Positions 1,851 through 34,065 of a DNA stretch of 44,971 bases are shown piece by piece. This DNA is from an uncultured Methanosarcinales archaeon. GTDB taxonomy: Archaea > Nanobdellota > Nanobdellia > Woesearchaeales > CAYSVS01. Within the stretch, counting starts at the first letter, position 1. Each line of letters opens with the position of its first letter. Where the stretch lies: NCBI GenBank assembly GCA_964434475.1, contig CAYSVS010000005.1, forward strand, positions 1-44,971, read 5' to 3'. A program made the position numbers and the translations under genes. The notes below the pieces were generated by a model, which had not been told where the DNA came from, did not search any database, and saw only the letters and a list, made by a program, of their open reading frames with translations.

Positions 1851-1981
1851 CAAAACCTTGTCTTTTGATTGTTCGTCCTGTTGAACTTTGTTCAACATGC
1901 GGCAAATTAAAATTTGTCAGCATATCCCCAACCTAATGGTAGGGATATTAGACCCCAATCAAATCTCTGCAAGATTTTCAA
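1851..1981. repeat. Structured multi-hairpin intergenic repeat, copy 1 (short form)
   Basis: Aligns with 32630-32824 and 33871-34065; hairpins tgttgaac-ttt-gttcaaca, gcaaatt/aatttgt and tatccc/gggata; closing stem tttgattg/caatcaaa. Confidence 0.9.
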
Positions 1982-1989
1982 TAAAAAAA

Positions 1990-2286
1990 TCATAATCTCA
2001 TTAGCATAAATCCTATAGTTAATGCTATCAAGGACCAGATACTTATCCCTGTAAGCATACCCTTTACACTTAATATGTATAATAAAGCTATTATAAATAC
2101 TAACCTTCCAAAACAGCCGCTGTCATCCTTATGCTTGTGCCATGTCCAAGGTTCATCCCAAGGAAAGCATTTTTTTTTAGGAATTTCACTACCTATCTTT
2201 TCTCCAACTATCTTGCCAACCTCTTCCCAAGAATGTGATTTTTTCTTTGATCTAGATTTTGCTTTAGCTTTCTTTTTTGCTGCCAT
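1990..2286 (-). CDS. Small hypothetical membrane protein (basic N-terminus, two C-terminal TM helices)
   Basis: GAGGTG Shine-Dalgarno upstream of the ATG; hydrophobic C-terminus. Confidence 0.75.
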   Translation of the reverse strand: MAAKKKAKAKSRSKKKSHSWEEVGKIVGEKIGSEIPKKKCFPWDEPWTWHKHKDDSGCFGRLVFIIALLYILSVKGMLTGISIWSLIALTIGFMLMRL

Positions 2287-2396
2287 AATAATTCACCTCT
2301 TTATCTATAGTATTAAATATACCTATTTAAATACTTTATTAAAACAATTCTCAGATCCTACGGATATATGCTATTTTTATAGAAAATCAGACAAAT

Positions 2397-2663
2397 TCAA
2401 ACCTTATCGTACTTTACCCTAAGATTCCAATACATACTTTCAAATTCAAGAAACTGTTCTTTTTCTAAAGGGATAATATTTCTTAACTTATGATATCCAT
2501 ATATTTCATCAATAATATCATTCCTTGAATCAGGATTTGACTGCATAATATGGTATAGATCTATCATCATAGATATTGAAGCATCTGCATCTTTCTCAGG
2601 ATAACCTAAATCTACAAACATCACCTTCATATTTGAGATAATCTCATCATCTATTGATACCAT
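2397..2663 (-). CDS. Hypothetical protein
   Basis: 88-aa ATG ORF filling an intergenic gap; no recognisable motif. Confidence 0.6.
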   Translation of the reverse strand: MVSIDDEIISNMKVMFVDLGYPEKDADASISMMIDLYHIMQSNPDSRNDIIDEIYGYHKLRNIIPLEKEQFLEFESMYWNLRVKYDKV

Positions 2664-2749
2664 ATAATGTATAAAAGCCGAATAAATAAAAAACTTACCT
2701 TCAAAAATTCCAAAAATAATATAAATATAAAAATATTATTCCTAATAAT

Positions 2750-3310
2750 ATGTCATACTCACTAAAAGATATGAAGAAAATAAGAAAAAAATTAGGATTG
2801 ACACAAGCTCAGCTGGCAAAAAAAGCCAATGTAAGCCAGAGTTTGATAGCAAAAATAGAAAGCGATGCTATAGATCCTGCATACAGCAAGACAGAAAAAA
2901 TATTCAATGCTTTTGAGATACTTCAAAAAAAGGAGAAGATAAAAGCAAGGGAAATAATGAACAAAAAGATAATCACAGTAAAGACAGAGGATTTTGTAAG
3001 CAATATAATCAAGAAGATGAAAAAACACAATATCTCACAGATGCCTGTATTAGAGAATAATTCTCCAGCAGGGTTGATATCTGAATCAACCATAATAGAT
3101 GCTATAGCTGATATGCATAATCCTAAAAATATAGCGAAGCTTAAAGTAGAGCAGGTAATGAAAGAATGTCCTCCTATAATAACTCCTAACGCAGATATAG
3201 AGCTTATATCAAGCCTATTGAAGCATTATGCGATACTCCTTGTTGCTGAGAAAGGCAAATTAAAAGGACTCATTAGTAAGGCTGATGTTCTAGATAGTAT
3301 TTATGGATGA
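2750..3310 (+). CDS. XRE-type HTH plus CBS-pair transcriptional regulator (COG3620-like)
   Basis: RKKLGLTQAQLAKKANVSQSLIAKIE HTH; two CBS motifs (ISQMPV, GLISKADVL). Confidence 0.9.
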   Translation: MSYSLKDMKKIRKKLGLTQAQLAKKANVSQSLIAKIESDAIDPAYSKTEKIFNAFEILQKKEKIKAREIMNKKIITVKTEDFVSNIIKKMKKHNISQMPVLENNSPAGLISESTIIDAIADMHNPKNIAKLKVEQVMKECPPIITPNADIELISSLLKHYAILLVAEKGKLKGLISKADVLDSIYG

Positions 3311-3373
3311 TAAAGATTTAATTTACATTACATTTTGATAAAAAATAATGTTTGTGATAATTTGTAACGCACA

Positions 3374-4081
3374 TCAATAAAGATTCTTCAATTTTCCGAA
3401 TTCAAGAATCTCATCTTCAGCAACAACATACACATCAAATTCATCTAACTTCTGATGCAGATAAGGGCTTAATAGTTTTTGTGAGATAACATCAGTACCC
3501 TCTGTCACCGGATTAAAGCTAGGCATAACGATCAATTCTTTTCTTTTATACTTTCCATGTAAAAAGCATTTGTATTTCTCTATCCTGTTATTTTCTTTTA
3601 AAGAAACAGCAGGATGTTCATGTGCTATAATCATTGTCTTGATTTTTTTAGGAATCTCTAAAAATTTATCTCCGTGTATTATAAGAATATCATCTATCTC
3701 ATACTTATCAACAAGTTTTATATTTCGCTTATCAGCAATAGGGCCCAATATATTATCGTGGTTGCCTTTTACCAATATGACTTTACCGTACTCTAAAAGA
3801 AAATCTATCAATTTAAGTGTTTCTCGCCATTCTTGATCAGATATAGATCCGAATTCATGCTTTAAATCTCCGTTGATGACTATTGTATCAATCTTGTCTT
3901 TTACTTGATCCATTATTTTCTCAAGCCTTTGCATAATATCCTTAAAACTAAAACGAGGAATTAATACTCCTTTTTTATTCAACTCTTCTTCATAGCCTAT
4001 ATGGATATCTGCGATTATTAAAGTCCTATCTACCAATAGACACAAATCAATTATCTTTATCCTATCTGTTAATTTATACAT
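3374..4081 (-). CDS. Calcineurin-like metallophosphoesterase (COG1407-like)
   Basis: ADIHIG, GDLKH, GNHD, HGD and AHEHP motifs, plus MPSFN. Confidence 0.9.
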   Translation of the reverse strand: MYKLTDRIKIIDLCLLVDRTLIIADIHIGYEEELNKKGVLIPRFSFKDIMQRLEKIMDQVKDKIDTIVINGDLKHEFGSISDQEWRETLKLIDFLLEYGKVILVKGNHDNILGPIADKRNIKLVDKYEIDDILIIHGDKFLEIPKKIKTMIIAHEHPAVSLKENNRIEKYKCFLHGKYKRKELIVMPSFNPVTEGTDVISQKLLSPYLHQKLDEFDVYVVAEDEILEFGKLKNLY

Positions 4082-4116
4082 AATAACTTAAATAAATCTA
4101 GAATTTATAAATTTAA

Positions 4117-4512
4117 TTAATGAATAGTATTGTTTTCATATTTATTTACTGAATATGCTTGAAGATTAAAAAAACTATATGACGTACATTTTAACAATCT
4201 CAAAAATTCATTGAAATTTTCAAATGCTTGGTTTAAACGCACATAGTTGGTTTCATCTCTCTTAACACAAGTATCTAAATACTTCATAAATACATCTTCA
4301 GAACTCTTTATTTTTATATATTCTGCTTTATTCTTATCATAAATTTCAGAATCAACAATCTCAGCAACATTTTGCAAAATATCTACATAATCAAAATAAT
4401 TTCCATCAAAATTCTTATTAGAAATATAATCTTTAAGTTTTATTTCTAGTGAGATGTCATTAGAATCTAAATTTAACTTCACTATATTATCTACAAAACC
4501 TCTTTTTTTCAT
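4117..4512 (-). CDS. Hypothetical protein
   Basis: 131-aa ATG ORF co-oriented with its neighbours. Confidence 0.55.
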   Translation of the reverse strand: MKKRGFVDNIVKLNLDSNDISLEIKLKDYISNKNFDGNYFDYVDILQNVAEIVDSEIYDKNKAEYIKIKSSEDVFMKYLDTCVKRDETNYVRLNQAFENFNEFLRLLKCTSYSFFNLQAYSVNKYENNTIH

Positions 4513-4535
4513 CTTAAAAAATAAAAGAAAAAAAT

Positions 4536-4706
4536 TTATGCTTTTCCTAGGATTCTACACATAGTTGTACCACATACAGGGCACTTTCCTTTAGCCATCT
4601 TCATGCCTCTTGCATTAACAACAACTTCTGGATTCTGCATAGGAACATCTTTTTTCTTGCACTTTACACAATACGCTTTATATTCTTTAGTTTCTTCTTC
4701 TGCCAC
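4536..4706 (-). CDS. Small zinc-ribbon protein (DUF5679-like)
   Basis: AYCVKCK...AKGKCPVCGTTMCRI; GTG start at 4706 preceded by a GAGGTG SD. Confidence 0.8.
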   Translation of the reverse strand: MAEEETKEYKAYCVKCKKKDVPMQNPEVVVNARGMKMAKGKCPVCGTTMCRILGKA

Positions 4707-4799
4707 TGATAAACACCTCATTAGTTATATATTATATAGTATTAAATATTTTATATATAAAGGTTTCTACGTATTGCCTATAAATTTCAATCAATATTA

Positions 4800-6674
4800 T
4801 CAATTATCACTTCTGCTAAGCTCAACCCATTTGCCGCCGTTCCATATCAATGTGATAGTATCTGATGAATCATCCATTACATAATCTCCAGCAAGCAAAA
4901 GATCAGTACTATCAACAAAAGTTATATCTCTTATAGACACATATTGCTCTAAAACAAGTATCTGTCCAACATTTGTTCCTGGGCCGATTGATGTACAATC
5001 ATCGGTTGCAGCTCCGCCAAATGTATCTATGTATTGGAATGATTCTGTGACAGCTATACCGCCTGTTGAGTTAAGCGTAGCAACAGTACCATCACCAAAT
5101 GAGACAGCTTTATCAAAATCAGTGAAACCCGCAGCATTGATTTGCACACGTTCAAGATTATTTGTAAAGAAACGCATAGGTAAATTTTCTTGTTGAGCAA
5201 TTATAACGCCTTCCTCACTATCTATACCGATTGCTAAACCATCACTAGCTGTTGTTCCTGTATCAGTATTTGTAATCTGAAGATAATTGCTTGTAACTGC
5301 ACTTTTATGTATGCCTAAAGCATAATTAGGCGAATTTGTACCTATACCAACATTGCCAGAATCCTTTATTCTCATCTCCTCTTGCAGACCGTTTGCTCCT
5401 TGATGAGTTGAGAAAATAATATCTCCATGATTTGCCCATCCAGAATTAGGATTATAAAACTCTATCCTCGCAATTTCATAACCATTGTTATTAGCAGTCA
5501 AATATCCTATAGTATCTACTGTTTTTGTAACACTAGATATTATCTGAATGTTACCATCTCCTACGCTTAATTTTTGATTAGGTGCTGCAGTACCTATACC
5601 AACATAACCTGTATTGGCGATAGTCATTGCTGTTTCCCAAACTCCGCCAGCAATATCTGTCCAAAAAGCTAAACCACCAGAAGAATCAATCTGCATAATT
5701 GCTTGTGCATCCGCATCATCTGAAAATTGTAAAAATCCACCATCAGCAACTCCTGCTGCACCTGCTTTTGATATTCTTATTCCGCCATCAGCAACTTCAA
5801 ATTTAGCAACAGGATTTGATGTGCCTATACCTACTTTGCCGTCATCTGTTATTCTCATCCTTTCTGTTGATTCAGTTTTAAAAGTAATATTGTTGCCTGT
5901 ATCTCCTGCAATAAGATTTAAATCTCCACCATAAGAAAATATAGAGCGAGTATCTCCTCTCATCTGCAATTGATTAGATGAACCATCCCACACACGAATA
6001 GTTGGACCGCTTGTTGCGACAATATCTAAAGTTTTACCAGGAGTTGTCGTTCCTATACCGACCCTTCCTGCAGATGTAATTCTCATTTTCTCTTTTAAAC
6101 CATCAGAACTATGAAAAGTAGAAAATGTTAATGAAGTTTGTGGCCAAGTTGGCTCTTCAGCAATTGCTCTTACACTAGCACGAGGATCATCGCCCCCAAT
6201 ATCTCTTTTTAAAGAAAAATCAATTCCCACCATATTTCCTACAGCAGTAGAATATTGATTGTCAATTTTAATAGTGAAATTTTGATTTGAGTTATCTTCA
6301 ATCTCTAATTTATTATCAGGTGTTGCTGTGCCTATGCCTACGCTACCATTATTTCCAACCCACATAGCTTCTCCAATTCCAGTATATAATCTTAAAACAA
6401 AATCTGCAGGATTAGTTCCTGCTGTTTGAATTTGAACACCATCTCCAGATATATTTGAATTATAAGAATAAATTAATCTATCTGCAGTATTAAGTCTAAG
6501 ATCTAACAAACTTGATGGCGTGGAAATTCCAATCCCTATCCTATTATTAGTCTCGTCAAAGAACATATTGCCTATGCTTAAGTTGGCATTATGCGCATTC
6601 CAATATTTTGTTGTTGCAAAAACAGAGCTAACTAAAATCAAGAATACTAGTCCGAAGGTTATTATTTTTTTCAT
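4800..6674 (-). CDS. Secreted fibre/adhesin-like protein with multiple GxVGIGTxxP repeats (fibre protein 3)
   Basis: Signal peptide MKKIITFGLVFLILVSSVFA; six G.(V/I)GIG boxes; ATG at 6674 overlaps the upstream stop (ATGA). Confidence 0.8.
   Translation of the reverse strand: MKKIITFGLVFLILVSSVFATTKYWNAHNANLSIGNMFFDETNNRIGIGISTPSSLLDLRLNTADRLIYSYNSNISGDGVQIQTAGTNPADFVLRLYTGIGEAMWVGNNGSVGIGTATPDNKLEIEDNSNQNFTIKIDNQYSTAVGNMVGIDFSLKRDIGGDDPRASVRAIAEEPTWPQTSLTFSTFHSSDGLKEKMRITSAGRVGIGTTTPGKTLDIVATSGPTIRVWDGSSNQLQMRGDTRSIFSYGGDLNLIAGDTGNNITFKTESTERMRITDDGKVGIGTSNPVAKFEVADGGIRISKAGAAGVADGGFLQFSDDADAQAIMQIDSSGGLAFWTDIAGGVWETAMTIANTGYVGIGTAAPNQKLSVGDGNIQIISSVTKTVDTIGYLTANNNGYEIARIEFYNPNSGWANHGDIIFSTHQGANGLQEEMRIKDSGNVGIGTNSPNYALGIHKSAVTSNYLQITNTDTGTTASDGLAIGIDSEEGVIIAQQENLPMRFFTNNLERVQINAAGFTDFDKAVSFGDGTVATLNSTGGIAVTESFQYIDTFGGAATDDCTSIGPGTNVGQILVLEQYVSIRDITFVDSTDLLLAGDYVMDDSSDTITLIWNGGKWVELSRSDN
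5325..5358. repeat. 34-bp identical direct repeat encoding GNVGIGTNSPN (partner at 7241-7274)
   Basis: attaggcgaatttgtacctataccaacattgcca occurs identically in both genes. Confidence 0.9.
6532..6663. repeat. 132-bp direct repeat: shared 5' cassette of fibre genes 2 and 3 (partner at 7791-7922)
   Basis: 5 mismatches in 132 bp by eye; encodes the signal peptide plus TTKYWNAHNANLSIGNMFFDETN.RIGI. Confidence 0.95.
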
Positions 6675-7936
6675 GGTTCTACTATATACCAATAATTATT
6701 CACATACACTGCTGTAACTCCTCCAGAACCTACACCAGGTATTGTCAAGTCAGCATTATCAGGATTTAAAAACTTCTGCGTTCCTGTAGCTTCATCATTT
6801 TCAATTACCAGATCATTTGCAGTATATTTTTTTATTATATGCAAGACTTGGCCTTCTACTCCTCCAGATAATCCACCAATAGTTCTTGTTGCTGCGCTTG
6901 TATCCACAAGCAATATTCCAATATCAGAAACATCATAGTTGTCTGTGTCTGAAGCTATTGTTGCAGAAGCGACTGAAAAAGATCCTCCGACATCTAAGGT
7001 TGTGTCTGGAGTTGTATCATTAATGCCAACTTTGCCGTTATTCAACATCATCATTATTGTATGACCGCCTTGACCTTTAAATTCAAAATCCTGTTCACTA
7101 GATGGCCAACTTGAATGCTCTACAGTAAATGTTAAAGGTCCTACTCCATTATCAGGATGTCCAATCTTATGATATGCATTTGAATTACCAGAACTATATT
7201 CCCAGCTTATGTTCTGTCCATAGTCTAAAGTCAATCTATCATTAGGCGAATTTGTACCTATACCAACATTGCCATTGCCTTTTACAACAAACTTATGCAA
7301 ACCGCCATTATAAACACTAAATGCATATGTATTAGAACTAAGATTTGCAACAGAAACAAGTAAACCATGAGCAGAAGTACTAAATTTATTTTGATTAACT
7401 ATCTGAGCAGCCCATGTAGTTTCATTACTATAAACACCTAATTTCTCACTTGGATTTGTTGTACCTATGCCTACATTACCATCTTTATTTATAACCAATC
7501 CTGTATTCCAATTCCCTATTGCTCCGTCTTTTGATGTTGTTAATCTTAATTTTCCGCCGCCATTGATAAAATGCGATACGATCGAAGCAGTCTCTTTATA
7601 TGGAAAATCCAAAGAGCCATCAGGATCGTGATACATATAAAATGCATTTGTAAGATTATCATAACTATTTGGAGTACCAAATATATTTATCCTGCTAAAG
7701 TTATTATTACCATAAGGATATATCTGAAATTGGTCCCTTAATTTCAATGTTCCATCTATATCTAAAGTTGCAGAAGGACTCTCTGTCCCTATCCCTATCC
7801 TATCATTAGTTTCGTCAAAGAACATATTTCCTATGCTTAAGTTGGCATTATGCGCATTCCAATATTTTGTTGTTGCAAAAACAGAGCTAACTAAAATCAA
7901 GAATACAAGTCCGAATGTTATTGTTTTTTTGTTCAT
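6671..7936 (-). CDS. Secreted fibre/adhesin-like protein with GNVGIGT repeats (fibre protein 2)
   Basis: Signal peptide; four GIG boxes; ATG at 7936 overlaps the upstream TGA (ATGA). Confidence 0.8.
   Translation of the reverse strand: MNKKTITFGLVFLILVSSVFATTKYWNAHNANLSIGNMFFDETNDRIGIGTESPSATLDIDGTLKLRDQFQIYPYGNNNFSRINIFGTPNSYDNLTNAFYMYHDPDGSLDFPYKETASIVSHFINGGGKLRLTTSKDGAIGNWNTGLVINKDGNVGIGTTNPSEKLGVYSNETTWAAQIVNQNKFSTSAHGLLVSVANLSSNTYAFSVYNGGLHKFVVKGNGNVGIGTNSPNDRLTLDYGQNISWEYSSGNSNAYHKIGHPDNGVGPLTFTVEHSSWPSSEQDFEFKGQGGHTIMMMLNNGKVGINDTTPDTTLDVGGSFSVASATIASDTDNYDVSDIGILLVDTSAATRTIGGLSGGVEGQVLHIIKKYTANDLVIENDEATGTQKFLNPDNADLTIPGVGSGGVTAVYVNNYWYIVEP
7241..7274. repeat. 34-bp identical direct repeat, second copy
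   Basis: Identical to 5325-5358. Confidence 0.9.
7791..7922. repeat. 132-bp direct repeat, second copy
   Basis: Near-identical to 6532-6663. Confidence 0.95.
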
Positions 7937-9279
7937 TTTTCTACTTTCCAATACCCTCCTTTTGCTGAGCCTATTCTTTCAATTATGCCTTTCTCTTTTA
8001 ATAATTTTAAATCACGTTTTACAGTCTTTTCATTAACATTTAATAAATTAGCAAGCTCTGTTATAGTTATCTTATTATTGAGATTTATTTTTCTGACAAT
8101 TTGTTCTAATCTTTTTTCAGGGACATTTTCAGGGACATTTTCAGGGACATTTTCAAGAACATCTTTATGTGATTTATAGAAAATAATCCTAAAAAAATCA
8201 TCTGTTTCAAACTTTATCTTCAATTTTTGTTCTTTGGCTAATGTTTTTATACGATTGATTCCTGAACCTATTTTTTCAATCAGATTTAATCTATGGAAAA
8301 TATCAAATAAAATAGGATTTCTGGGAAAACTTATCTTGCCCAATTTCTTTTTATCAAAAAGCAGTCTACCATAATTTACAATCTCTATCCTATTGTCAAA
8401 TATTTCAACAAATACACCAAACCTATCTTCAAAATAATCTCTATGGATTATTGCATTTAGCAATGCTTCTCTCAATGCTTCCTCAGGTAGTTCAAGAACC
8501 TCTTTTCTAGGACCTGCATTTTTAATAATATAACTTAGCTTCAAGTTCCGTATTAAGAAATTCATCGCATTATGGTAATTTTCAAGCAAGTCTTTATTGA
8601 AATCTTTTCTATCTATAACATTAACCCTTTCATTTCCCTTATATAATACACAAGTTATAAAATTTTGTCTAATGAATGATACAGGCTGCTTCGCAAACAT
8701 TAAAACTCCTGCGTTGTTAAGGATAAATCTCTTATTGATATAATCACCCAAAGAAAGATTTTTAATGATCTCTTTATCAGAAATTACTTTTGATATTTTA
8801 GAGCTTTTTAGGAAAGTATCAAATTTAGTCTTGTCAAAATCTTTTTTGAAATCAAAATCTGAACATATCAGTTCATCAAACCGCGATTTACCTATAGAAA
8901 CCATCATCTTCAACAAATCATCTCTAAATAGTTTTTGAGAGTTTGCTCCTTCCCGTATATAATATCCTTGAGAACACCTATAAGGCTTATCCTTGCCTTC
9001 TTCAACATCAATAATCAAGACATTATTATATTCTTCAAGCTTGATTTTTATTTTAGGATCACAGTTAAAGGCAATATCCTGTATCTGAGATTTAAGCTTA
9101 TTCGTTATAGTTATTCCTTTCACAACACTTTTATCAGTTATTCCTAAAAATATTCTTCCTCCATTAGAGTTTGCAAGAGCAGTAATCTCTTTAGATATTG
9201 ACTTGTTCAGGTTTTCCTTAAACTCAACCTTTAATCCTTCTCCTTCCTCTAATATCTGCTTAAATTCGTTTTTGTTCAT
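7933..9279 (-). CDS. Schlafen/AlbA_2 domain + HATPase_c_4 + C-terminal wHTH protein (often mis-annotated as RecG-like)
   Basis: GEGLKVEFKE...ALANSNGGRIFLGITD; ALREALLNAIIHRDY; RNP...IEKIGSGI; C-terminal TITELA..TVKRDL..RIGSAKGGYW; likely ATG at 9279. Confidence 0.9.
   Translation of the reverse strand: MNKNEFKQILEEGEGLKVEFKENLNKSISKEITALANSNGGRIFLGITDKSVVKGITITNKLKSQIQDIAFNCDPKIKIKLEEYNNVLIIDVEEGKDKPYRCSQGYYIREGANSQKLFRDDLLKMMVSIGKSRFDELICSDFDFKKDFDKTKFDTFLKSSKISKVISDKEIIKNLSLGDYINKRFILNNAGVLMFAKQPVSFIRQNFITCVLYKGNERVNVIDRKDFNKDLLENYHNAMNFLIRNLKLSYIIKNAGPRKEVLELPEEALREALLNAIIHRDYFEDRFGVFVEIFDNRIEIVNYGRLLFDKKKLGKISFPRNPILFDIFHRLNLIEKIGSGINRIKTLAKEQKLKIKFETDDFFRIIFYKSHKDVLENVPENVPENVPEKRLEQIVRKINLNNKITITELANLLNVNEKTVKRDLKLLKEKGIIERIGSAKGGYWKVEK
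8116..8155. repeat. 12-bp tandem repeat (~3.3 copies) encoding an ENVP linker
   Basis: ttcagggacatt repeated three times; protein reads ENVPENVPENVPE. Confidence 0.9.
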
Positions 9280-9310
9280 TTTTTTGCACAATTGTTCATT
9301 TTACAGAACA

Positions 9311-12208
9311 TTAATTTAGTCCAACCAAACATTCTATCTCGCAAGTCGCTTCTTGACAGCTTTCCAAAGCTTTTCCTACTACTGCGCCGAAATCATCTAC
9401 TGTAGCTTTCTTTGCATATCCGGGATTTGAGCTTGATGTCAATAAATCATAAGCTTCAACAGGTCCGTTTACCTTTACTTTTACCAATCCAGTTATGCCG
9501 ATAGGATAATTACCATTGCCTAAATTACCTATTATAGTAGGATTAACAGAAACTATTCCAACAACTGATTTATCACTATCCTTATCGCATCTGCCAATCT
9601 CTTCTCCTTTATGGCAAACAACATCTCCTGCTTCCAATTCTTGACTAGAGAACATCCACTCAGCAAAATCCGCACCATAACTTGTTATGTTTCCGCCGAT
9701 ATAGAGATTTTCGGTGATATTTACAGTACCATTGACATGCAATCTAGAAGTTGGTGAAGTTGTACCAATTCCTAGTTCTCCAAACTTGATCCAAGAATCA
9801 CCGCCATCTGTCCTTAAGTTAGTTGCTATCTCTGTTCCTTCGTATAATCTTAATCTTGCGCCATCTGTCTGTCTATGAAGCATAGCCAAAGTATTTCCAG
9901 CACCATTTGTCAATGTAATACCTTGATCAGACGCAGTCGCATTTATATCAAGGTTGTTTGAAGGGCTTGTTGTACCTATGCCAACTTTACCATCAATAGT
10001 AGCACCTGCACCTTGAGTTAAACTAAGATTATTGCCATAAATAATAATGTCATTCTTATCTAATCTTAATGATTCATCCCAAGTTACAGGATTATCAGCA
10101 ACATCACTAACTGCGTGACTAAAACGTATAGTACCATCATTTTCCAAACGTACATAAGAAGCTTGATCCTCTGCTATATATTCCCATCTGCCATCAACAG
10201 GATCATAATATGCATTATACGTTATTGAACCTGGAGTTTCCCACTGTAATTGACCTGCATTTACTCTTATTGATCCATTAACATGCAGTCTTTCTGCAGG
10301 CGTTCTTGTGCCTATGCCAACATTACCGCCTTTCAAAGTCATAACAGTTGAATCTGCAATTGTCTTTCCTGATTTTTTTACATTGAGATACATCACGCCC
10401 TCTTCATAACCATCTGTAGAGTTTACAAGATCAACATAAATATCACTATAAACTTCTTCATTAGTATTATTGTCCAAAGCTATAAAACCAATCCTTCCTG
10501 CTTCATTTCCTACAGTGGTAGAAGAAGTATTTGCCTTAAGATATAATATACCTCTTTTGCCTACTCCGTGTGCACCGATATGCACAACGCTATTTGCACC
10601 ATTCCTATAAACGTGCAAATCAGCTGTAGGACTTGCTGTACCTATACCAATATCATCATCAATATTTGAAGGATAAACAAAAGTTCCAGTCCTTGACCAA
10701 TATCCTGAACCAGCAGGCCATGCATCCCTACAATCTCCGTTTATACATACATTTCCTGCACTATCTATCGCCAAAGCTTCATTAGCATCTTCAGCTGCAG
10801 ATGATGATGTAATAAAACTAATCTTTCCAGGAACAGCTACACCAGAACTACCGTTTTGTGTAACAACAATCTTAGCAGCACGTTTCAACACATCGTTTGA
10901 ACTTATACCCTCAAACTGTATTGTTCCTATTGTTTCAGTATCAACTGTTTCAGTCAATCCTCCTGAAGTATCATTATGACTTTTTGATAACCTTAATATT
11001 GAGTTATGTCCATCTGTATCTGAATAAGTTCTTATCGCTTGTTCTGTTGATGATGCAGTTCCAACAACCTCTAGCTTATAGTTAGGAAATGTTGTACCTA
11101 TACCTATTTTGCTTGCAACAAGACTATAAGGAGCTTGCACTACCCCTGTATCTCCATGTATTATTAGACCATCGTACATCATTCCATCAGTTAAACGAAC
11201 ACGTAAAGCAAGACTCACATTATGATCTCTGTCCTTATCTCCTGCAACGATATATGCCTTATTATCTACATCTGAATATCTTCCAACATACAAGAAACTT
11301 GACTGGTTATCTATTTGCGAAATAGTACCGTTTACATGTAATGGAGCATTAGGCGTTGTTGTGCCTATGCCGACATTACCTGCTCCATCTATCCTCATCT
11401 GTTCGGTATTACCAGTTCCAAAGATCAAAGGCGCTGCGCTTATAGTTCCAATCTTAAGATTTTTTATTGCATTTCCTGCTCTCAGATAAGCAGTCATGTT
11501 AGTAGGATCATTCATAAAGTTATTCGTACTTTCGTTGCTGAACAAAGACATCTCCAGATATCTTCCTACATTGTTAAATAATATTAATGAAGATCTAGTT
11601 GATTTATTCATTGTCTCAATCTTAGCATAAATATTTTCATCTGATTGTATATGTAATTTTTGATTAGGCGTTGTTGTCCCAATACCAACATTACCATCCT
11701 TATCTGCAAACAAAGCATCGTGTTGAGTACCATCATCATCTGTAGTTATCATCTTGATACCTTTGCCCCACCCATAAGATCCCAGAGTAAGATTTCTACC
11801 GTATGCAACAAGCGCAACTTGGTTACCTCTCATCTGTATCTGCTGGGAAATATTAGTTTGACTGATAGCCCTGATTGTGCCGTTAACATCAAGCTGATAG
11901 CCAAGATTATTCATACCTATTCCAACCCTATAACTTAAATCTGAAGGTGATAAATTAATTCCATCAAGATTCCAATATCCTCCACCACCTGCAGGCCAGC
12001 TTGTCTGGCAATCTCCGTTCAAGCACAACTGAGGGGTATGAGTGATGCTTGTTACGTTCAGCTCGCCAGTTATCTTATAATTGCCGCTTCCAAAGCTTCC
12101 AGCTACTATCTCATCAGCGTCGTGATATACAACACCGCCGCCAAAAGCGATTGCAGAACACGCAAATAATATTGTTAAGATTATATACATTACACTCTTT
12201 TTTGTCAT
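9311..12208 (-). CDS. Large secreted fibre protein with GNVGIGTTxP repeats and a C-terminal intramolecular-chaperone/autoproteolysis (peptidase G2/S74-like) domain (fibre protein 1)
   Basis: Signal peptide; about eight GIG boxes; two C.NGDC...WPAG.G motifs; C-terminus GADFAEW..LEAGDVV..VVGIVS.NP..GLVKVKV..DLLTSS..PGYA..VVGKALE; AGGGGG SD before ATG 12208. Confidence 0.8.
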   Translation of the reverse strand: MTKKSVMYIILTILFACSAIAFGGGVVYHDADEIVAGSFGSGNYKITGELNVTSITHTPQLCLNGDCQTSWPAGGGGYWNLDGINLSPSDLSYRVGIGMNNLGYQLDVNGTIRAISQTNISQQIQMRGNQVALVAYGRNLTLGSYGWGKGIKMITTDDDGTQHDALFADKDGNVGIGTTTPNQKLHIQSDENIYAKIETMNKSTRSSLILFNNVGRYLEMSLFSNESTNNFMNDPTNMTAYLRAGNAIKNLKIGTISAAPLIFGTGNTEQMRIDGAGNVGIGTTTPNAPLHVNGTISQIDNQSSFLYVGRYSDVDNKAYIVAGDKDRDHNVSLALRVRLTDGMMYDGLIIHGDTGVVQAPYSLVASKIGIGTTFPNYKLEVVGTASSTEQAIRTYSDTDGHNSILRLSKSHNDTSGGLTETVDTETIGTIQFEGISSNDVLKRAAKIVVTQNGSSGVAVPGKISFITSSSAAEDANEALAIDSAGNVCINGDCRDAWPAGSGYWSRTGTFVYPSNIDDDIGIGTASPTADLHVYRNGANSVVHIGAHGVGKRGILYLKANTSSTTVGNEAGRIGFIALDNNTNEEVYSDIYVDLVNSTDGYEEGVMYLNVKKSGKTIADSTVMTLKGGNVGIGTRTPAERLHVNGSIRVNAGQLQWETPGSITYNAYYDPVDGRWEYIAEDQASYVRLENDGTIRFSHAVSDVADNPVTWDESLRLDKNDIIIYGNNLSLTQGAGATIDGKVGIGTTSPSNNLDINATASDQGITLTNGAGNTLAMLHRQTDGARLRLYEGTEIATNLRTDGGDSWIKFGELGIGTTSPTSRLHVNGTVNITENLYIGGNITSYGADFAEWMFSSQELEAGDVVCHKGEEIGRCDKDSDKSVVGIVSVNPTIIGNLGNGNYPIGITGLVKVKVNGPVEAYDLLTSSSNPGYAKKATVDDFGAVVGKALESCQEATCEIECLVGLN

Positions 12209-12283
12209 TAATATCCCCCTCTTTAAGTATAAAATTAGAGAATTAATCATTATTTAATATATAAAGGTTTTTATTTTATATAC

Positions 12284-13492
12284 TTAAATATCCCACTTCC
12301 AAACAGGAATTATATGTATTAACTTTCCATCTATGTTTAACTCATCTTCCTGATCAAAAGTTAATATGCATCCTTCTTTAAGATTGAATTCAGCCATCGC
12401 CTCAAGTAACCCAAAAACTTCCCTGTCCTGATTACCATCATCAAGCTTATAACATACCTGAATGGCCTTAATTATCTTATTTTTCTCCTTTACAACAAAA
12501 TCGCATTCTTTGTTTTCTTTAAAATAAAAGATTTCTTTATATCTTGGTCTTAAACTCAGAAAAACCTGATTTTCAAGCATTTTTCCCTTATCTTTTGAAA
12601 ATGAAACACTGTTTGAATATGAAAAACCATTATCGATCGAATAAACTTTTTTAGGGTTTACCTGCTGCTTTTTATAGGAATAACTAAATCTAGGAATCGT
12701 AAAAATAAGGTAAGCGTCTTCAAAATAAGAGATATAATCAATTACGCTTTGAACTGACTTTATCTCAAACATATTCCTTAAGGAATTATAAGAAAATTCT
12801 TTTCCTACATGGCTTATCAAGTATATTGCTATTTTTTTCAGCAAAGAAGTGTTTTTTATTCCGTATCTTACAGCAATATCCCTCATCACAACATCATTCA
12901 AAAGTTCATTGAGGATTGTAAAATTCCGAGTCTTTAGATATTCAGGAAATCCTCCTTCAGTCAGATAATGGCCATAAGATTTAGAAGACTGTTTTCCTTT
13001 TCTAAACTTAAGATATTCAATATATGAAAAAGGAAATAATTCTGCCCTTATATGTCTGCCTGTCAATTTAGTCCCTAATTCCCTGCTTAGTAAAGATGCA
13101 TTTGAACCGGTTATCACTACCTTTTCCTTTCTGTCAACAAGATATCGGATAAATTTCTCCCATTTGTCTATGTTTTGGATTTCATCAAAAAAATATACGC
13201 CATTAGCGCCATATAACTCTTTAAAAATAACATCAGTCTTATTAAAATCATCTAACCCAAAACTTTCAAGCCTTGGATCCTCAAGATTAAGATAATAGAA
13301 GTTTTTTGATTTTTTCAGAATCTGGCTTAATAAAGTGCTTTTACCACATCTTCTTATACCTGCTATTACCAAAACAAAAGAAGGCATGACATTTACTTCT
13401 CCTAGCAAATGTCTCTCTACACCTTTCTCAATATCAAGAATCCATTTTCTCTGGGATTCGATAACTTCTCTTAAGACTTCTTTTCGCAACAT
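12284..13492 (-). CDS. AAA+ ATPase of the AAA_14/DUF4143 (COG1373) family
   Basis: Walker A GIRRCGKS, Walker B FFDEIQ, TGSNA, GGFPE, KVYSIDNG; C-terminal ECDF...AIQV nuclease-like motif. Confidence 0.9.
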   Translation of the reverse strand: MLRKEVLREVIESQRKWILDIEKGVERHLLGEVNVMPSFVLVIAGIRRCGKSTLLSQILKKSKNFYYLNLEDPRLESFGLDDFNKTDVIFKELYGANGVYFFDEIQNIDKWEKFIRYLVDRKEKVVITGSNASLLSRELGTKLTGRHIRAELFPFSYIEYLKFRKGKQSSKSYGHYLTEGGFPEYLKTRNFTILNELLNDVVMRDIAVRYGIKNTSLLKKIAIYLISHVGKEFSYNSLRNMFEIKSVQSVIDYISYFEDAYLIFTIPRFSYSYKKQQVNPKKVYSIDNGFSYSNSVSFSKDKGKMLENQVFLSLRPRYKEIFYFKENKECDFVVKEKNKIIKAIQVCYKLDDGNQDREVFGLLEAMAEFNLKEGCILTFDQEDELNIDGKLIHIIPVWKWDI

Positions 13493-13566
13493 AAACAAAA
13501 ATATATCCTTAAAGTATATAAATCTTTCTATTCACAATAGAAACTTCTTTCTATTACTAATAAAAA

Positions 13567-27576: not shown

Positions 27577-27579
27577 AAA

Positions 27580-29394: not shown

Positions 29395-29400
29395 TAGCTT

Positions 29401-30621
29401 ATGCTTAAATGCAGCATGTATAAAGATATAGTCGGAGAAAAGGTAATACAAAAGATAGAAGATGAAGTTCAGCCTTTGATAGGCAAACATATAATCCATG
29501 TCAATTCTACTTATTACGGCGGCGGAGTCGCTGAAATGCTTAATAGCTTAGTTCCTTTGATGAACAATATAGGCATAAACACAGGCTGGAGATTACTTAA
29601 AGGCAATCCTGACTTCTTTACTATAACCAAAAAATTCCATAATTCACTGCAGGGAGAAAAGATACATATGACCAACATAAAGAAAAAAATATATGAACAG
29701 GTCAATGAAAGCAATTCTTTTTTCTCGCACATAGGACATCATGACTGTATAATTGTCCATGATCCACAACCCCTGCCTTTAATAAATTATTACAGAAAAA
29801 ACCAGCCATGGATATGGCGTGTGCATATAGATCTTTCAAAACCAAACGTACAGACATGGAACTATCTCAAGAATTTCGTCAAAAAATATGATAGAATAAT
29901 AGTTTCAAAAAAGACATTCAAAAGAAAGATAGATGTTCCTCAGTCTATAATATATCCTTCCATAGATCCTTTGAACCACAAGAATGAAGATTTAAGCGAC
30001 AGGAGGATACAAAAAACATTGCAAAAGTTCGGGATAGAACAAGATAAGCCTATAATGTGTCAGATTTCAAGATTTGATAAATGGAAAGATCCTTTAGGCG
30101 TAATAAGAACATTCAAGCTTGTAAGAAAAAAATTCAACTGTAAGCTTGTATTATTAGGCAGCAGTGCAACCGACGATCCAGAAGGCCAGATAGTATATGA
30201 TCAAGTAATGAAAGCAGTAAAAGATGAAAAAGACATACATGTAATAAACTATACTAACAATCACCTGGTAAATTCATTACAAAGAGCATCAGATGTTATA
30301 GTCCAAAAATCACTAAGAGAAGGATTCGGATTGACTGTAACAGAAGCGCTTTGGAAGTCTACGCCAGTAGTAGCAAGCAACGTAGGAGGCATACATCTGC
30401 AGATAAAGAACGGGTATAACGGCTATCTTGTGGATTCTGTCAAATCATGTGCAAAAGCTGTTGAAAAAGTTTTGAAAAACCCTAAAAAAGCTAAAGTGAT
30501 GGGAAAAAGAGGAAAAGAATATATAAGAGAAAATTTCTTAGTGACAAGACATTTAAGAGATTATATCAAACTGATGAAAGATCAAATCATACATTATAAA
30601 ACAAACAAGGTGAAAAGATGA
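29401..30621 (+). CDS. treT: Trehalose synthase TreT (GT4 glycosyltransferase)
   Basis: HVNSTYYGGGVAEML, HDPQP, WRVHID, SRFDKWKDPLG, QKSLREGFGLTVTEALWK. Confidence 0.9.
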   Translation: MLKCSMYKDIVGEKVIQKIEDEVQPLIGKHIIHVNSTYYGGGVAEMLNSLVPLMNNIGINTGWRLLKGNPDFFTITKKFHNSLQGEKIHMTNIKKKIYEQVNESNSFFSHIGHHDCIIVHDPQPLPLINYYRKNQPWIWRVHIDLSKPNVQTWNYLKNFVKKYDRIIVSKKTFKRKIDVPQSIIYPSIDPLNHKNEDLSDRRIQKTLQKFGIEQDKPIMCQISRFDKWKDPLGVIRTFKLVRKKFNCKLVLLGSSATDDPEGQIVYDQVMKAVKDEKDIHVINYTNNHLVNSLQRASDVIVQKSLREGFGLTVTEALWKSTPVVASNVGGIHLQIKNGYNGYLVDSVKSCAKAVEKVLKNPKKAKVMGKRGKEYIRENFLVTRHLRDYIKLMKDQIIHYKTNKVKR

Positions 30622-31685
30622 ACTTAGATCAATTCAACAAATTTTTGATGATTAGTCTAGGAGGTAATATTGTAAAGGATTACTTCATAGCATTAGGTAT
30701 TTTTATTGCTCTTTTGATCACATTGAAAATCTTCAAGGTATACGTCATACATGCATTGAAGAAAACTGCAAAAAAAACAAAGACAAAAGCAGATGATGTT
30801 TTTATCAGATTCCTGAATAAGATATCATGGTGGTTCTATGTTATAATATCAGTATATTTTAGTGCAAAATATCTTGTTTTACCAAACATAGTAAGCAAAA
30901 CATTAGATGTATTACTCCTTGTAGGATTAATATATTACTTTGTCAAAGGCTTGACCAAAGTAGTGGATTATTTCGCAAACAAAGAGATATCAAAAAGGCA
31001 CGAAGAAGAAAAGTTCGAGGGCACTTCTATGATTAAAACCTTAGTAACTATGATAAAAGCAGTGATATGGATAATAGCATTTCTGATGATCCTCAGTAAT
31101 ATAGGAATCAATATAACTTCATTGGTAGCAGGATTAGGAGTTGGAGGTATAGCGATTGCTTTCGCTTTGCAAAATATACTACAGGACATCTTCAGCTCTT
31201 TTACAATATATTTTGACAAACCCTTCAAACCAGGTGATTTTATAATAATAGGACAAGACATGGGAATTGTTGAAAATATAGGAATTAAGACGACAAGAAT
31301 AAAAACCCTGCAAGGACAGGAATTGATCGTTTCAAACAGGGAATTGACAAATACCAGAATAAACAATTACAAAAGAATGGAAAAAAGAAGGATTGTTTTT
31401 GATATTGGGGTTGAATACGAAACAACATCACAACAGTTAAGAAATGGAAAAAAAAGGATACAGGAAATCTTCAAAAAAATAGATTTAGTTGATCTTGATA
31501 GGGTGCACTTTAAAAAATTTGCTGACTTCAGTCTGGTTTATGAAATAGTATATTACTTGAACAGCAGCGATTACACTACATATATGGACAAACAAGAGGA
31601 AATCAACTTTAAGATAAAAGATGCTTTTGAAGAAGAGGGCATAGTTATGGCATTCCCTACACAGACAATACATCTGGTGAAATAA
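30618..31685 (+). CDS. mscS: Small-conductance mechanosensitive channel
   Basis: LVAGLGVGGIAIAFALQNIL.D, DKPFKPGDFI, IGIKTTRI; ATGA overlap with treT. Confidence 0.95.
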   Translation: MNLDQFNKFLMISLGGNIVKDYFIALGIFIALLITLKIFKVYVIHALKKTAKKTKTKADDVFIRFLNKISWWFYVIISVYFSAKYLVLPNIVSKTLDVLLLVGLIYYFVKGLTKVVDYFANKEISKRHEEEKFEGTSMIKTLVTMIKAVIWIIAFLMILSNIGINITSLVAGLGVGGIAIAFALQNILQDIFSSFTIYFDKPFKPGDFIIIGQDMGIVENIGIKTTRIKTLQGQELIVSNRELTNTRINNYKRMEKRRIVFDIGVEYETTSQQLRNGKKRIQEIFKKIDLVDLDRVHFKKFADFSLVYEIVYYLNSSDYTTYMDKQEEINFKIKDAFEEEGIVMAFPTQTIHLVK

Positions 31686-32077
31686 TGGATAAAGATTTAG
31701 AACAAATCACGTCAAAAAGTGAAGAACAAGAAACTAACATAGATAATAGTCAAAACATCGAAGACATAAAATCTCTATTAAAAACTCTAAAAAAAGGAGA
31801 TATAATAGAATATGAACGAAGAAATTATCATTTTGACTGGAAATCTATAATGGGACTTCAAAAGCACTATTTCAAAACAGGATATTTTTTGGATTCTTCT
31901 TACTTGCACGGAAAATATGAAACATTCGATAATAAAGATAAAAAAGAAGATAAAGGTGAATATCTAAAAGGGCATATAGAGATTGCAAACATAAAATACA
32001 ATGAAGAAAGCATAGAATCATATAGTAAAATAGAAAAAATAGATATAAGAAATATAATAAGAATTCAAAAACTTTAA
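31685..32077 (+). CDS. Hypothetical protein
   Basis: 130 aa; TAATG overlap with mscS. Confidence 0.65.
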   Translation: MDKDLEQITSKSEEQETNIDNSQNIEDIKSLLKTLKKGDIIEYERRNYHFDWKSIMGLQKHYFKTGYFLDSSYLHGKYETFDNKDKKEDKGEYLKGHIEIANIKYNEESIESYSKIEKIDIRNIIRIQKL

Positions 32078-32081
32078 TTTC

Positions 32082-32561
32082 TTATTTCTTAAAATAACCG
32101 AAAACAATAGAGCCCAATTCAATTATCGATTTATTCTCCAATTTCTTAGCATCAAAACTTTCCATATTCATGCCATTATACTTGACCTCTAGCTTATCAG
32201 AGAAACAATTCCTTAGTTCAGTATGTCCTTTCATATAATTATGATGTATTACAACATGAGAAAAATAATTTCCCATCTGGTATCCGAACTCTTTTCTGAA
32301 ATCCCCTAAACAATCAACATATTTGTCTGCACCATTAAATAAGTCAGATATTATATCAACATCTGGGATAAATATTTTATTTTGAGAAGGTATGTTCCTA
32401 AAAGGAGCATTAAAATCCCAAAAACCAATTGTGATTACCCTATTATCGTCTAATTTATAGGAAGGTTTCATCAAACAATGATCAAATACAAGATAATCTC
32501 CTTTCTGCATATCTGCAAAGTTCGCTTCAAGCTTCTTAATCATATTTTCAAGATAATCCAT
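32082..32561 (-). CDS. Hypothetical protein
   Basis: 159-aa ATG ORF; tttataaa box about 23 nt upstream. Confidence 0.7.
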   Translation of the reverse strand: MDYLENMIKKLEANFADMQKGDYLVFDHCLMKPSYKLDDNRVITIGFWDFNAPFRNIPSQNKIFIPDVDIISDLFNGADKYVDCLGDFRKEFGYQMGNYFSHVVIHHNYMKGHTELRNCFSDKLEVKYNGMNMESFDAKKLENKSIIELGSIVFGYFKK

Positions 32562-32629
32562 AAATCAAAGAATTTAGTGATAGTTTATAAATTTTTATTG
32601 AACTCAAGAACACAAATAGCATAAGATAA

Positions 32630-32824
32630 GAAAAATTTGTATTTTGATTGTTAGTCCTGTTGAACAAAGTTCAACATGCCACAAATATAAGATTTGTCAG
32701 CATATCCCTATCCTAAAGTTAGGAGTATTACGGACTCACTATTAAGACCAATTTTTAGGATTAAAACTATCGCACTAAAGTGCAGGATATTAGACCTCCA
32801 TTCAAATCTCTGCGAGATTTTCAA
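32630..32824. repeat. Structured multi-hairpin intergenic repeat, copy 2 (long form)
   Basis: Colinear with 33871-34065 over about 195 bp. Confidence 0.9.
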
Positions 32825-32897
32825 CAAGAATAAACAAACAATAATAAAGTAAGAAAAAAGAAACCAAATATAGTCCCTCAAAAATAATATGATTAAA

Positions 32898-33788
32898 TTA
32901 CTTAACCTCGATACTCGCGCCTATGTACGCAGGCATCATAGCTGAAGTATATCTATAAATTCCTGATTCATTGAACGTCATGTTATATGTCATTCCTGTC
33001 TCCAATCTAGGAGTTCTGAAATAATTATACGGCTGTCTGCAATAAAGCATATGATTAGCTCTTCCTAGGTTTTCCCATACAACTGTTTCACCTTTAGTTA
33101 TTACCAAATCATTAGGCGTAACTGTTCCGCCGTTTATAGTGACAGTATGGTGCTGCGGCTTAAGTATATCTTTTGCAGTCAATCCTTCGTATTCATCAGA
33201 AGAGTTTGAATCAGTCTCATTTTCCTCAACTTCTGTTTCACTAACAATAGGCCAGATAGGAGATAATTCTGTTCTTTTTTTAATTACAATATCATCTATG
33301 ATACCACTTCCATCTAAATTGGTATCAAGTGAATAATTGTCTCCATCTATCACTTTTATATCAAATACAAAAGATGTTATCTCGTGTGGTTTAATATTGA
33401 AATCTTTTTCCAGAACCATAACATCATAAGATACATCAACAGCTTCTCCTTTTTTATAAGCTTTAATATCATCTATAATTAACTCTAACTTGGTATAATT
33501 TTTAGTATCCAAAGCTGTCTGAAATACACTATATGCATTATTACCATTAAGCTTAACCATCTCTATAGCATCATTTGTCAAAGAAAGCTCAAGTATGTTT
33601 TCATCCTTATATATCTTCATCTTATCCAATTTCAAAGCTATACTATCAAATCCTTCAACATTATCTGAGGATATCAAAAGTTCAAAAGTTCCTTTTGAAG
33701 AAACTTCTACAGAATCTTCTGTTGTAGAATCACTACTACATCCAAAAATAAACAACATAAAGACCAATCCAATAAATATCCTTTTCAT
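32898..33788 (-). CDS. Putative lipoprotein: DUF4382-like domain plus degenerate C-terminal cupredoxin fold
   Basis: LFIFGC lipobox-like signal; GTFELLISSD...SFVFDI; PNDLVITKGETVVWEN...YNMTFNESGIYRY; likely ATG at 33788 after GGAGG. Confidence 0.7.
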   Translation of the reverse strand: MKRIFIGLVFMLFIFGCSSDSTTEDSVEVSSKGTFELLISSDNVEGFDSIALKLDKMKIYKDENILELSLTNDAIEMVKLNGNNAYSVFQTALDTKNYTKLELIIDDIKAYKKGEAVDVSYDVMVLEKDFNIKPHEITSFVFDIKVIDGDNYSLDTNLDGSGIIDDIVIKKRTELSPIWPIVSETEVEENETDSNSSDEYEGLTAKDILKPQHHTVTINGGTVTPNDLVITKGETVVWENLGRANHMLYCRQPYNYFRTPRLETGMTYNMTFNESGIYRYTSAMMPAYIGASIEVK

Positions 33789-33870
33789 AAACATCCCTCC
33801 CATAATAAAGGTAAATCAATATAATATTTAAAAATGTTTCGTAATATTGGCAACTAAGTAAATCTTATAA

Positions 33871-34065
33871 CAAAAATTTGTCTCTTGATTACTCGTCCTG
33901 TTGAACAAAGTTCAATATGCCACAAATCTGCGATTTGTCAGCATATCCCAAACCTAAAAGCAAGGGTATTACGGATTCACTATTGAGACAAATTTGTGGG
34001 ATTGAAAATCTCGCACTAAAGTGCGGAATATTAGACCCCTATTCAAATCTCTGTGAAATTTTCAA
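33871..34065. repeat. Structured multi-hairpin intergenic repeat, copy 3 (long form)
   Basis: Stems aaatttgtctc/gagacaaattt, gtcc/ggat, ttgaac/gttcaa, acaaatc/gatttgt, cgcact/agtgcg, ttgaaaat/attttcaa. Confidence 0.9.

Follow-up and report, generated by a model that had tools for sequence, protein, structure and literature searches.

A gene-less hairpin repeat of Woesearchaeales, very probably a non-autonomous relative of IS200 insertion sequences

Introduction

What kind of element is the hairpin-rich repeat that stands three times between open reading frames (ORFs) on contig CAYSVS010000005.1 of the uncultured archaeon GCA_964434475.1, a member of the order Woesearchaeales? This contig of 44,971 nucleotides is referred to here as the window; it is contig C5 of a host genome assembly of 1.5 Mb with 33% G+C in 148 contigs. 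A preliminary description of the window had proposed two possibilities, a non-autonomous element mobilized by an HUH enzyme and a family of structured noncoding RNAs (ncRNAs). The analysis presented here makes it very probable that the repeat is a gene-less derivative of IS200 (IS200/IS605 family), mobilized by an HUH enzyme and comparable to the palindrome-associated transposable elements (PATEs) or, loosely, to MITEs, small transposable elements bounded by inverted repeats.

Alignment and BLASTN confirm the three co-oriented intergenic copies reported on the plus strand, with a pairwise likeness of 80 to 84% and a mean column identity of 79% in the MAFFT alignment. This resemblance is far beyond chance, as the copy-versus-copy BLASTN comparisons give E-values of 1e-20 to 8e-59. 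Read on the minus strand, which is adopted below, copy 2 (32626-32823) and copy 3 (33867-34064) are full length, copy 3 being the best kept in the window, and copy 1 (1847-1980) carries an internal deletion of 63 bp that joins the right-end closing stem to the left-end domain. These boundaries were read by eye from the window sequence and the family alignments. Conservation begins sharply at ATAAC and stops at ...TTTTCA-ATAA, with flanks that are unrelated between copies. In the host genome, 13 nhmmer matches represent about 11 loci, one of which (contig C6) carries the second domain alone. The other copies are 70 to 86% identical to copy 3, and the host-genome copies are old and partly decayed.

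Two Domains Homologous to the Ends of IS200 Elements

On the minus strand, the repeat is composed of a left-end (LE) and a right-end (RE) domain, which correspond to the second and the first domain of the preliminary description. The LE domain follows a flanking TTAT and contains a closing stem, P4, around GGGG-TTTAATA-CCCC and a hairpin with a TTTA loop, with a CCC linker behind it. In copy 3, this domain spans positions 34001-34064, where P4 encloses both P6, a small GGGG/CCCC stem with the candidate guide AATA in its loop, and P5, the TTTA-loop hairpin at 34012-34025. The RE domain of copy 3 (33867-33996) is built from the closing stem P1 (33873-33884 with 33986-33996) and then the inner stem P2 around ...TAATACCCC-hairpin-GGGG-ATAGG..., and it ends in ...TTGTTAT, so that GTTAT forms its terminus on the top strand. 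The hairpin inside P2 is the module P3 (about 33944-33972), of the form ATACCCC...TTTA...GGGG, and two extra lineage-specific hairpins occupy positions 33901-33942.

The relationship of these domains to IS200 was determined with two models built from repeat copies only, R1, a covariance model of the LE domain, and R2, a model of the RE core. The test set comprised 80 metagenomic loci (149,723 bases) picked solely by similarity to this type of TnpA, with tnpA on the plus strand. R1 gave 41 matches at an E-value of ≤5, of which 36 are placed on the sense strand, 99 to 152 nt upstream of tnpA. Where the upstream sequence measured 200 nt or more, such a match was found in 30 of 32 loci with a TnpA at least 66% identical to that of the host genome, compared to 2 of 36 with a TnpA below 66% identity. 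In 46 of the 80 loci, R2 shows sense-strand matches between -10 and +60 nt of the tnpA end, and the IS200 right hairpin CCCCAACC-TTTA-GGTTGGGG-A is identical, letter for letter, to that of one repeat copy (L114). The best R1 matches among the 31 Y1 loci of the order are left ends as well, including the host genome's own (L001, E-value of 0.023). Both hairpin modules match the IS200 ends in the same order, on the same strand, and in direct orientation. Because the matches of R1 and R2 fall at the two respective ends of IS200 loci with a tnpA gene, the domain first described as the second is assigned, by sequence likeness, to the IS200 left end, and the first domain is assigned to the right end. 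The proposal of a non-autonomous element related to the HUH (Y1, IS200/IS605) transposons is upheld by this homology.

A relative with its own tnpA is found in genome G044, which carries two identical IS200 copies of 544 bp. The left side of this insertion sequence consists of the flank ...TTATT, a 5-bp closing stem around GGGTTTAATACCCC and a hairpin, and then tnpA; on the right side, a 6-bp closing stem surrounds GGATACCCC-hairpin, followed by ...TTTATT. The 14-mer GGGTTTAATACCCC occurs exactly in a repeat subfamily of genome G057, followed there too by a hairpin within a closing stem.

Some LE-like matches lie away from the expected place. In one pair of loci (L172, 2773-2834, and L258, 1654-1742), one match is about 900 nt upstream of tnpA and the other is about 90 nt downstream, and locus L202 carries a full RE-like domain 1.1 kb from its tnpA. 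Such matches beside autonomous copies may represent solo ends or further miniature relatives.

Strand and Secondary Structure

The homology with tnpA-bearing elements points to the minus strand of the window as the active one, designated the top strand. The minimum free energy calculated with RNA parameters favors the same strand. When the host-genome copies are placed on the structure of copy 3, the broken pairs read on the plus strand are A:C in 67 cases, which correspond to wobble pairs on the minus strand, and G:T in 21 cases. In the LE stems of the family, the top strand shows 57 G:T compared to 35 A:C combinations, again in favor of the minus strand, and P1 is lengthened by wobble pairs of the top strand in 11 variants and by those of the bottom strand in 4, the strands being equal in 18. 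This wobble asymmetry favors the minus strand as supporting evidence and not as proof, as mutation bias could contribute.

The orientation given in the preliminary description is therewith reversed. The flanking target, TTAT on the top strand, corresponds to the ATAA that follows TTCA, and the right terminus of the element, GTTAT, corresponds to the leading ATAAC. The target tetranucleotide is found at 1981-1984 beside copy 1 and at 34065-34068 beside copy 3, in both cases as TTAT on the top strand and ATAA on the plus strand. Copy 2 has a degenerate tetranucleotide, ACAA, at 32824-32827 and ends in ATAAG instead of ATAAC. The other landmarks reported earlier, the leading ATAA, a TTGAT about 15 to 20 nt inside, and a final TTCAA followed by TAA or CAA, hold for the three window copies, but TTGAT and TTCAA are not found family-wide. 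Their reading as the cleavage motifs of ISDra2 has to be given up: TTGAT lies within the element and is absent in most subfamilies, and the supposed right cleavage motif TTCAA is part of the covarying stem P4, where it is replaced by TTCGA, TTTAA, or TTCCA in other copies.

The stems named earlier are real, namely, the closing stem, the inner stem, the three hairpins, and the second domain with its CGCAC-TAAA-GTGCG hairpin. Folding of copy 3 with DNA parameters gives z-scores of -4.4 for the plus strand and -4.3 for the minus strand, and none of 200 shuffled sequences was as stable. Across genomes, the long stems covary strongly. In P4, the LE closing stem, 95% of the cells are paired in 65 sequences, and 6 of 11 pairs are changed on both sides. 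The whole LE structure is better than 500 of 500 shuffles, and sliding the partner by 1 to 3 columns lowers the pairing from 92.5% to 30 to 56%. The RE core of P2 and P3 shows double changes in 13 of 15 pairs; its pairing percentage and covariation score were matched by 0 of 500 shuffles, and its number of doubly changed pairs was matched by 1 of 500. RNAalifold on a MAFFT alignment of the RE domains recovered only P3. Since indels misalign P1 and P2, P1 was measured for each sequence separately and P2 was measured on a trimmed alignment, and P1 was found with 33 distinct arm pairs in about 15 unrelated core sequences. An extension of P4 and the P5 hairpin compete for the same 5' arm, with data that fit both alternatives.

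The earlier statement that the stems persist holds for the well-kept copies of the host genome, which retain 79 to 83% Watson-Crick pairs on the structure of copy 3 and reach 90 to 95% when wobble pairs of the minus strand are included. It does not hold for three older copies with 63 to 65% Watson-Crick pairs, a loss of pairing that is expected for dead copies.

Extra pairs of hairpins are inserted at a few fixed points and differ by subfamily, and hairpins 1 and 2 of the preliminary description are such a lineage-specific inserted pair. In relatives (for example, L021, L051, L057, L065, L090, and L073), pairs of short A/T-rich hairpins are found within P3, within P4, behind GGGGATA, and at the boundary of the two domains. 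The inserted hairpins are often bounded by GTAC- or GGAC-like words and share an AAATC...GATTT core. The palindromic hairpin TGTTGAAC-NNN-GTTCAACA of the window copies (1881-1897, 32660-32676, and 33901-33917) has a loop of TTT or AAA, depending on the copy, a swap that looks more like an inversion of the hairpin loop than like point mutation.

Target Tetranucleotide and Internal Guide

Of 77 distinct copies, 64 carry TTAT as the 4 nt on the 5' side of the LE domain. Six further copies were scored as TATT, which is taken here to be the same TTAT with the search pattern one base off. In copies with TTAT, the 4-mer before CCCC is AATA or AAAA. A CTAT flank is found in eight copies at different sites of genome G052, with the 4-mer AGTA (AGGA in one of them), and a single copy with an ATAT flank has the 4-mer ATTA. 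The first base of the target covaries with the second base of this putative guide, the combinations being C:G in eight copies, A:T in one, and discordant in one rearranged copy, with T:A in almost all others. The number of independent events behind these pairs (T:A, C:G, and A:T) is small. Passages of PMC3597680 describe how the cleavage sites of IS608 are read by a tetranucleotide guide on the 5' side of the hairpin foot. The right end of the CTAT subfamily keeps TTAT together with AATA. With CTAT at its left end and TTAT at its right end, this subfamily speaks for an independent reading of the two ends, as in IS200/IS605 elements, and against a target duplication.

Distribution and Mobility

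The family extends far beyond the three copies of the window and the about 11 copies of the host genome. At an E-value of ≤1e-4, R1 matches 43 of 151 genomes across the order and 30 of the 116 high-quality genomes among them, with at least 30 copies in each of four genomes and no match in G001, the only same-genus genome of the 151-genome sample. When 60 relatives were searched at the DNA level, 10 of them, all outside the window's own family, contained the second domain, and the repeat was not found in either same-genus genome, G001 or G002. A degenerate 21-mer taken from the element occurs at 118 loci among species genomes, where the full second-domain matches come nearly all from metagenome-assembled genomes (MAGs) of Candidatus Woesearchaeota or Nanoarchaeota. 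All 56 copies viewed in the genome collection measure 120 to 400 nt, and no ORF lies within any of them; the only ORF that overlaps a copy in the window (33917-34162, 81 amino acids) has no Pfam match. Many copies in relatives stand at contig ends, and recent bursts have left near-identical copies in other genomes of the order. This distribution is the pattern of a mobile, non-autonomous element, since the repeat is multicopy and patchy, accumulates at contig ends, and consists of short units of 120 to 400 nt without an ORF. At the site of copy 3, the orthologous spacer between the ORF 32898-33803 and scpA measures 90 bp in G001, where the element is absent, compared to 542 bp in the window.

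The degenerate hairpin pattern is also found in MAGs of Bacteroidota (L047, L048, L053, L061, L086, L092, L094, L107, and L110) and in a Rickettsiales bin (L105, L106, and L120), near the ends of three contigs. With nhmmer, the hairpin module alone aligns in these bacterial matches, over about 25 to 35 nt. They may be the ends of bacterial IS200 relatives.

A Candidate Mobilizing Enzyme

As stated in the preliminary description, no mobilizer is encoded in the window. The host genome contains a single match to PF01797 (Y1_Tnp), an ORF of 138 amino acids on contig C102 with a score of 88 bits. The HUH histidines H62 and H64 and the C-terminal tyrosine Y127 of this TnpA are invariant in the family alignment. 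With its intact HUH motif and predicted catalytic tyrosine, the enzyme is a candidate mobilizer of the repeat.

Directly downstream of this tnpA, an ORF of 288 amino acids with DDE domains (DDE_Tnp_IS240, rve_3) lies on the minus strand (G000, locus L001, 510-1376). The 2.5-kb contig C102 therefore carries two different insertion sequences, either side by side or one within the other.

A scaffold for the omega RNA of TnpB or IscB was tried as another role for the repeat and rejected, as no TnpB above the Pfam cutoff was found in the six genomes searched. PF07282 (TnpB) has no match in G057, G042, G052, G044, and G009, and the host genome shows one match of 24 bits in a frame of 49 amino acids, under the 26.3-bit cutoff. 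No ORF adjoins the repeat copies in a regular way.

Observations Weighing against the IS200 Assignment

Several observations stand against a gene-less IS200 derivative mobilized by an HUH enzyme. Folding with DNA parameters favors neither strand, and because the z-scores are equal, the strand was chosen by wobble asymmetry and homology. The E-values of R1 on IS200 left ends are marginal (0.0016 to 0.98), so that the case for left-end homology rests on the concordance of position and strand. A long P4 stem is missing from the IS200 left ends of the host-genome type, and the right hairpin is separated from the terminus by 25 to 45 nt in the repeat compared to about 11 nt in IS200. In view of these differences in P4 and the linker, the repeat did not arise by simple internal deletion from the IS200 copies seen; it is an evolved relative of IS200 and not a fresh deletion product.

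The co-occurrence of the repeat with a Y1 transposase at the genome level is weak. Among genomes G000 to G060, PF01797 is matched in 5 of the 13 with at least four LE matches (the host genome G000, G028, G042, G044, and G057) and in 12 of the remaining 48. G049 and G059 contain at least 30 copies each, many of them with the same score in G049, and no Y1 was detected in these genomes, which are 82% and 63% complete. The only Y1 locus of G057 has unrelated end hairpins, and the matching IS200 type is present without the repeat in G002, G025, and G017. Incompleteness of MAGs may hide short multicopy insertion sequences, and the copies in genomes without Y1 may owe their movement to an enzyme from an outside source.

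The covariation of guide and target may go back to just one lineage, confined to one genome, together with one additional copy, and TTAT on both sides of an element could be read as a 4-bp duplication. No base-exact empty site was found at the orthologous spacers of G001 and G002, which are only about 69% identical to the host genome; the G001 spacer is short, and the G002 spacer is hairpin rich. The only sequencing run listed as containing the sequence is the probable source DNA run, with no RNA run among the entries; its contigs show no joint that skips a copy, and one contig ends inside copy 3. As no pair of empty and filled sites was recovered, the exact boundaries and the lack of target duplication are inferred. 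The spacer of G002 (L033, contig C6), between the homologue of the ORF 32898-33803 and scpA, contains a run of perfect hairpins without similarity to the repeat family, which may be another small structured repeat at the orthologous site of copy 3.

Alternative Explanations

A family of structured ncRNA genes, serving as guide-RNA scaffolds or regulatory RNAs and dispersed by duplication with the structure selected for an RNA function, is improbable, even though the strong covariation in all long stems would be expected of it. The conserved core with modular hairpin insertions at fixed points likewise resembles large functional RNAs, T-runs after both closing stems could end archaeal transcription, and excerpts of a study of Salmonella (10.1101/2024.06.26.600842) report stable small RNAs from IS200 5' ends. 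On the other side, Rfam offers no family at the gathering score or at an E-value of ≤10, with zero matches at the gathering score in the window and chance-level scores around copies 2 and 3 at an E-value of ≤10. The sequence beyond ATAAC...CAATAA is unrelated between copies and contains no conserved promoter-like flank, the older host-genome copies have decayed to 63 to 65% Watson-Crick pairs, and the six genomes searched provide no partner resembling TnpB or Cas12f. The patchy distribution with assembly-breaking bursts of near-identical copies also speaks against RNA genes, and neither homology to IS200 ends nor covariation between target and guide is expected for them. The ncRNA family considered in the preliminary description has thus found no direct support and may be a secondary property of the element.

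Repeats flanked by ATAA on both sides (ATAAC...TTCA-ATAA in most copies) could also be classical MITEs, with inverted repeats at their termini and a DDE transposase as the mobilizer, which would duplicate a 4-bp target, TTAT/ATAA. A DDE (IS240/rve_3) ORF does stand beside IS200 on C102, and the termini of the G057 subfamily, compared by eye with one inverted, agree at about 12 of 15 positions. In most subfamilies, however, the termini are not inverted repeats, and their likeness stems from the A/T-rich feet of the closing stems. The hairpin modules are direct and not inverted, as in IS200/IS605 ends, the CTAT subfamily differs systematically between CTAT on the left and TTAT on the right, and both ends match IS200 ends, which leaves this explanation with a very small probability, below that of RNA genes. 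Recombination sites of another system are less probable still and hardly credible. Integron attC sites function in the form of folded single strands, and there are reports of integrons from DPANN archaea. Copies 2 and 3, co-oriented and flanking one ORF (32898-33803), could on this view be attC or Xer/dif-like sites that bracket a gene cassette. The bracketed ORF is, however, a syntenic core gene that stands beside scpA in both same-genus genomes without the repeat, and the other host-genome copies are solitary. Upon inspection, the repeat consists of two separately closed domains, the 5' end paired with the middle and the middle paired with the 3' end, instead of one imperfect hairpin, and no complementary AAC...GTT ends were seen.

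Proposed Mechanism and Implications

For a gene-less IS200 derivative, a mechanism analogous to that of the IS200/IS605 family is proposed. Here, TnpA would be provided in trans and, as a dimer, bind to both TTTA-loop hairpins of the element on single-stranded DNA, such as the lagging-strand template. The cleavage sites would be found through pairing with the internal guide bases, and the cuts would be made after the flanking TTAT and after the terminal GTTAT. The element would then leave as a single-strand circle and be reinserted on the 3' side of another TTAT, without target duplication. The long closing stems probably fold each end in advance and bring both cleavage sites together, with each cut site at the foot of one of two neighboring helices that the CCC linker connects, an arrangement that should help the ends to meet.

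A more far-reaching idea, and a rather improbable one, is that the repeat is a self-folding single-stranded DNA scaffold whose stems preassemble both cleavage sites and that it has been retargeted naturally by changes of the guide base, from TTAT to CTAT to ATAT. If true, the repeat would exemplify how an HUH transposon is retargeted in nature through its guide, with the protein spared. A covariation of guide and target is to be expected from the laboratory retargeting of IS608. The natural covariation between the internal guide base of a transposon and its flanking target fits this prediction, and literature searches gave no report of such covariation for archaeal elements. The bursts without a detected cognate TnpA (G049, G057, and G059) leave room for an enzyme of viral or plasmid origin or one provided by the host of these episymbiotic archaea. 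A further factor could bind to the inserted hairpin pairs, or a structured RNA could be a second role of the element.

For annotation, the analysis ties a previously unannotated, order-wide repeat of Woesearchaeota (DPANN), which visibly breaks metagenomic assemblies, to a known transposition mechanism; full-text literature searches, which did not extend to ISfinder, gave no description of this family. It also calls for caution in screens for ncRNAs, as covarying, RNA-like intergenic structures can be the ends of single-stranded DNA transposons.

Genomic Context in the Window

The insertion of copy 1 has a local effect. Its terminal ATAAC (1847-1851) contains the TAA stop (1848-1850) of an ORF for a DUF5698/DUF2179 membrane protein (1278-1850), and the insertion therefore provides the present stop codon of this ORF. 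In relatives, many copies start directly past the end of an ORF, and a preference for TTAT/ATAA targets would favor insertion at such places.

The window shows the archaeal arrangement of a prefoldin gene adjoining FtsY and SRP54, and a tRNA scan of the window found none. A block of large ORFs on the minus strand at 4800-13498 encodes proteins of 630 amino acids (with a C terminus resembling a phage depolymerase), 426 amino acids, and 979 amino acids without a Pfam match, as well as 452 amino acids (Schlafen/AlbA_2, HATPase_c_4, and HTH domains) and 404 amino acids (AAA_14/DUF4143). This block looks like a variable or defense-type island.

Comparison with Known Systems

Among the closest systems are the IS200 elements of the order itself, of the C102 and G044 types. 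They have in common with the repeat a T-rich, TTAT-like target on the 5' side of the left end, a left end of GGGG-TTTAATA-CCCC followed by a TTTA-loop hairpin, and a right end of ATACCCC-hairpin-GGGG-A, and the G044 type also shows short closing stems. In contrast to these insertion sequences, the repeat lacks tnpA, has closing stems of 10 to 17 bp and a right hairpin that stands farther from the terminus, and ends in GTTAT instead of GGTCATT.

IS608 uses the motifs TTAC and TCAA, and ISDra2 uses TTGAT. The motif of the repeat is TTAT, in contrast to both, although all of these elements have hairpin ends that act as single strands in direct orientation and a conserved tetra- or pentanucleotide on the 5' side of the left end. 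The covariation seen in the repeat fits the internal guide that, as described in parts of PMC3597680, reads the cleavage site of IS608 from beside the hairpin foot.

Repetitive extragenic palindromes (REPs) and the bacterial interspersed mosaic elements (BIMEs) built from them are, according to portions of PMC2817692 and PMC8266576, hairpin DNA repeats tied to a Y1 HUH enzyme, the REP-associated tyrosine transposase (RAYT), and resemble the repeat in this respect. REPs are short single palindromes of about 20 to 40 nt, often in alternating orientation, with one domesticated gene. The Woesearchaeal repeat, by contrast, is a two-domain unit of 120 to 400 nt with LE and RE in direct orientation, and the related TnpA genes behave as insertion sequences, as the two 544-bp copies of G044 illustrate.

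PATEs are described in excerpts of PMC7290912 as gene-less, ends-only derivatives of IS200/IS605 elements, presumably moved in trans by TnpA, and the term also occurs in PMC3119063. The repeat resembles them as a short element without genes that keeps only the folded subterminal ends of the IS200 type. The element in those excerpts of PMC7290912 is a single copy with a remnant of tnpB and an IS605 right end, in contrast to the repeat, a derivative of a tnpA-only IS200 present in 43 of 151 genomes, in which a long, covarying stem closes each end and extra hairpins are added as modules. The IS200/IS605 family is reported, in sections of PMC13343696, to be the most widespread family of insertion sequences in archaea, and the Woesearchaeal repeat adds to its known ends-only derivatives.

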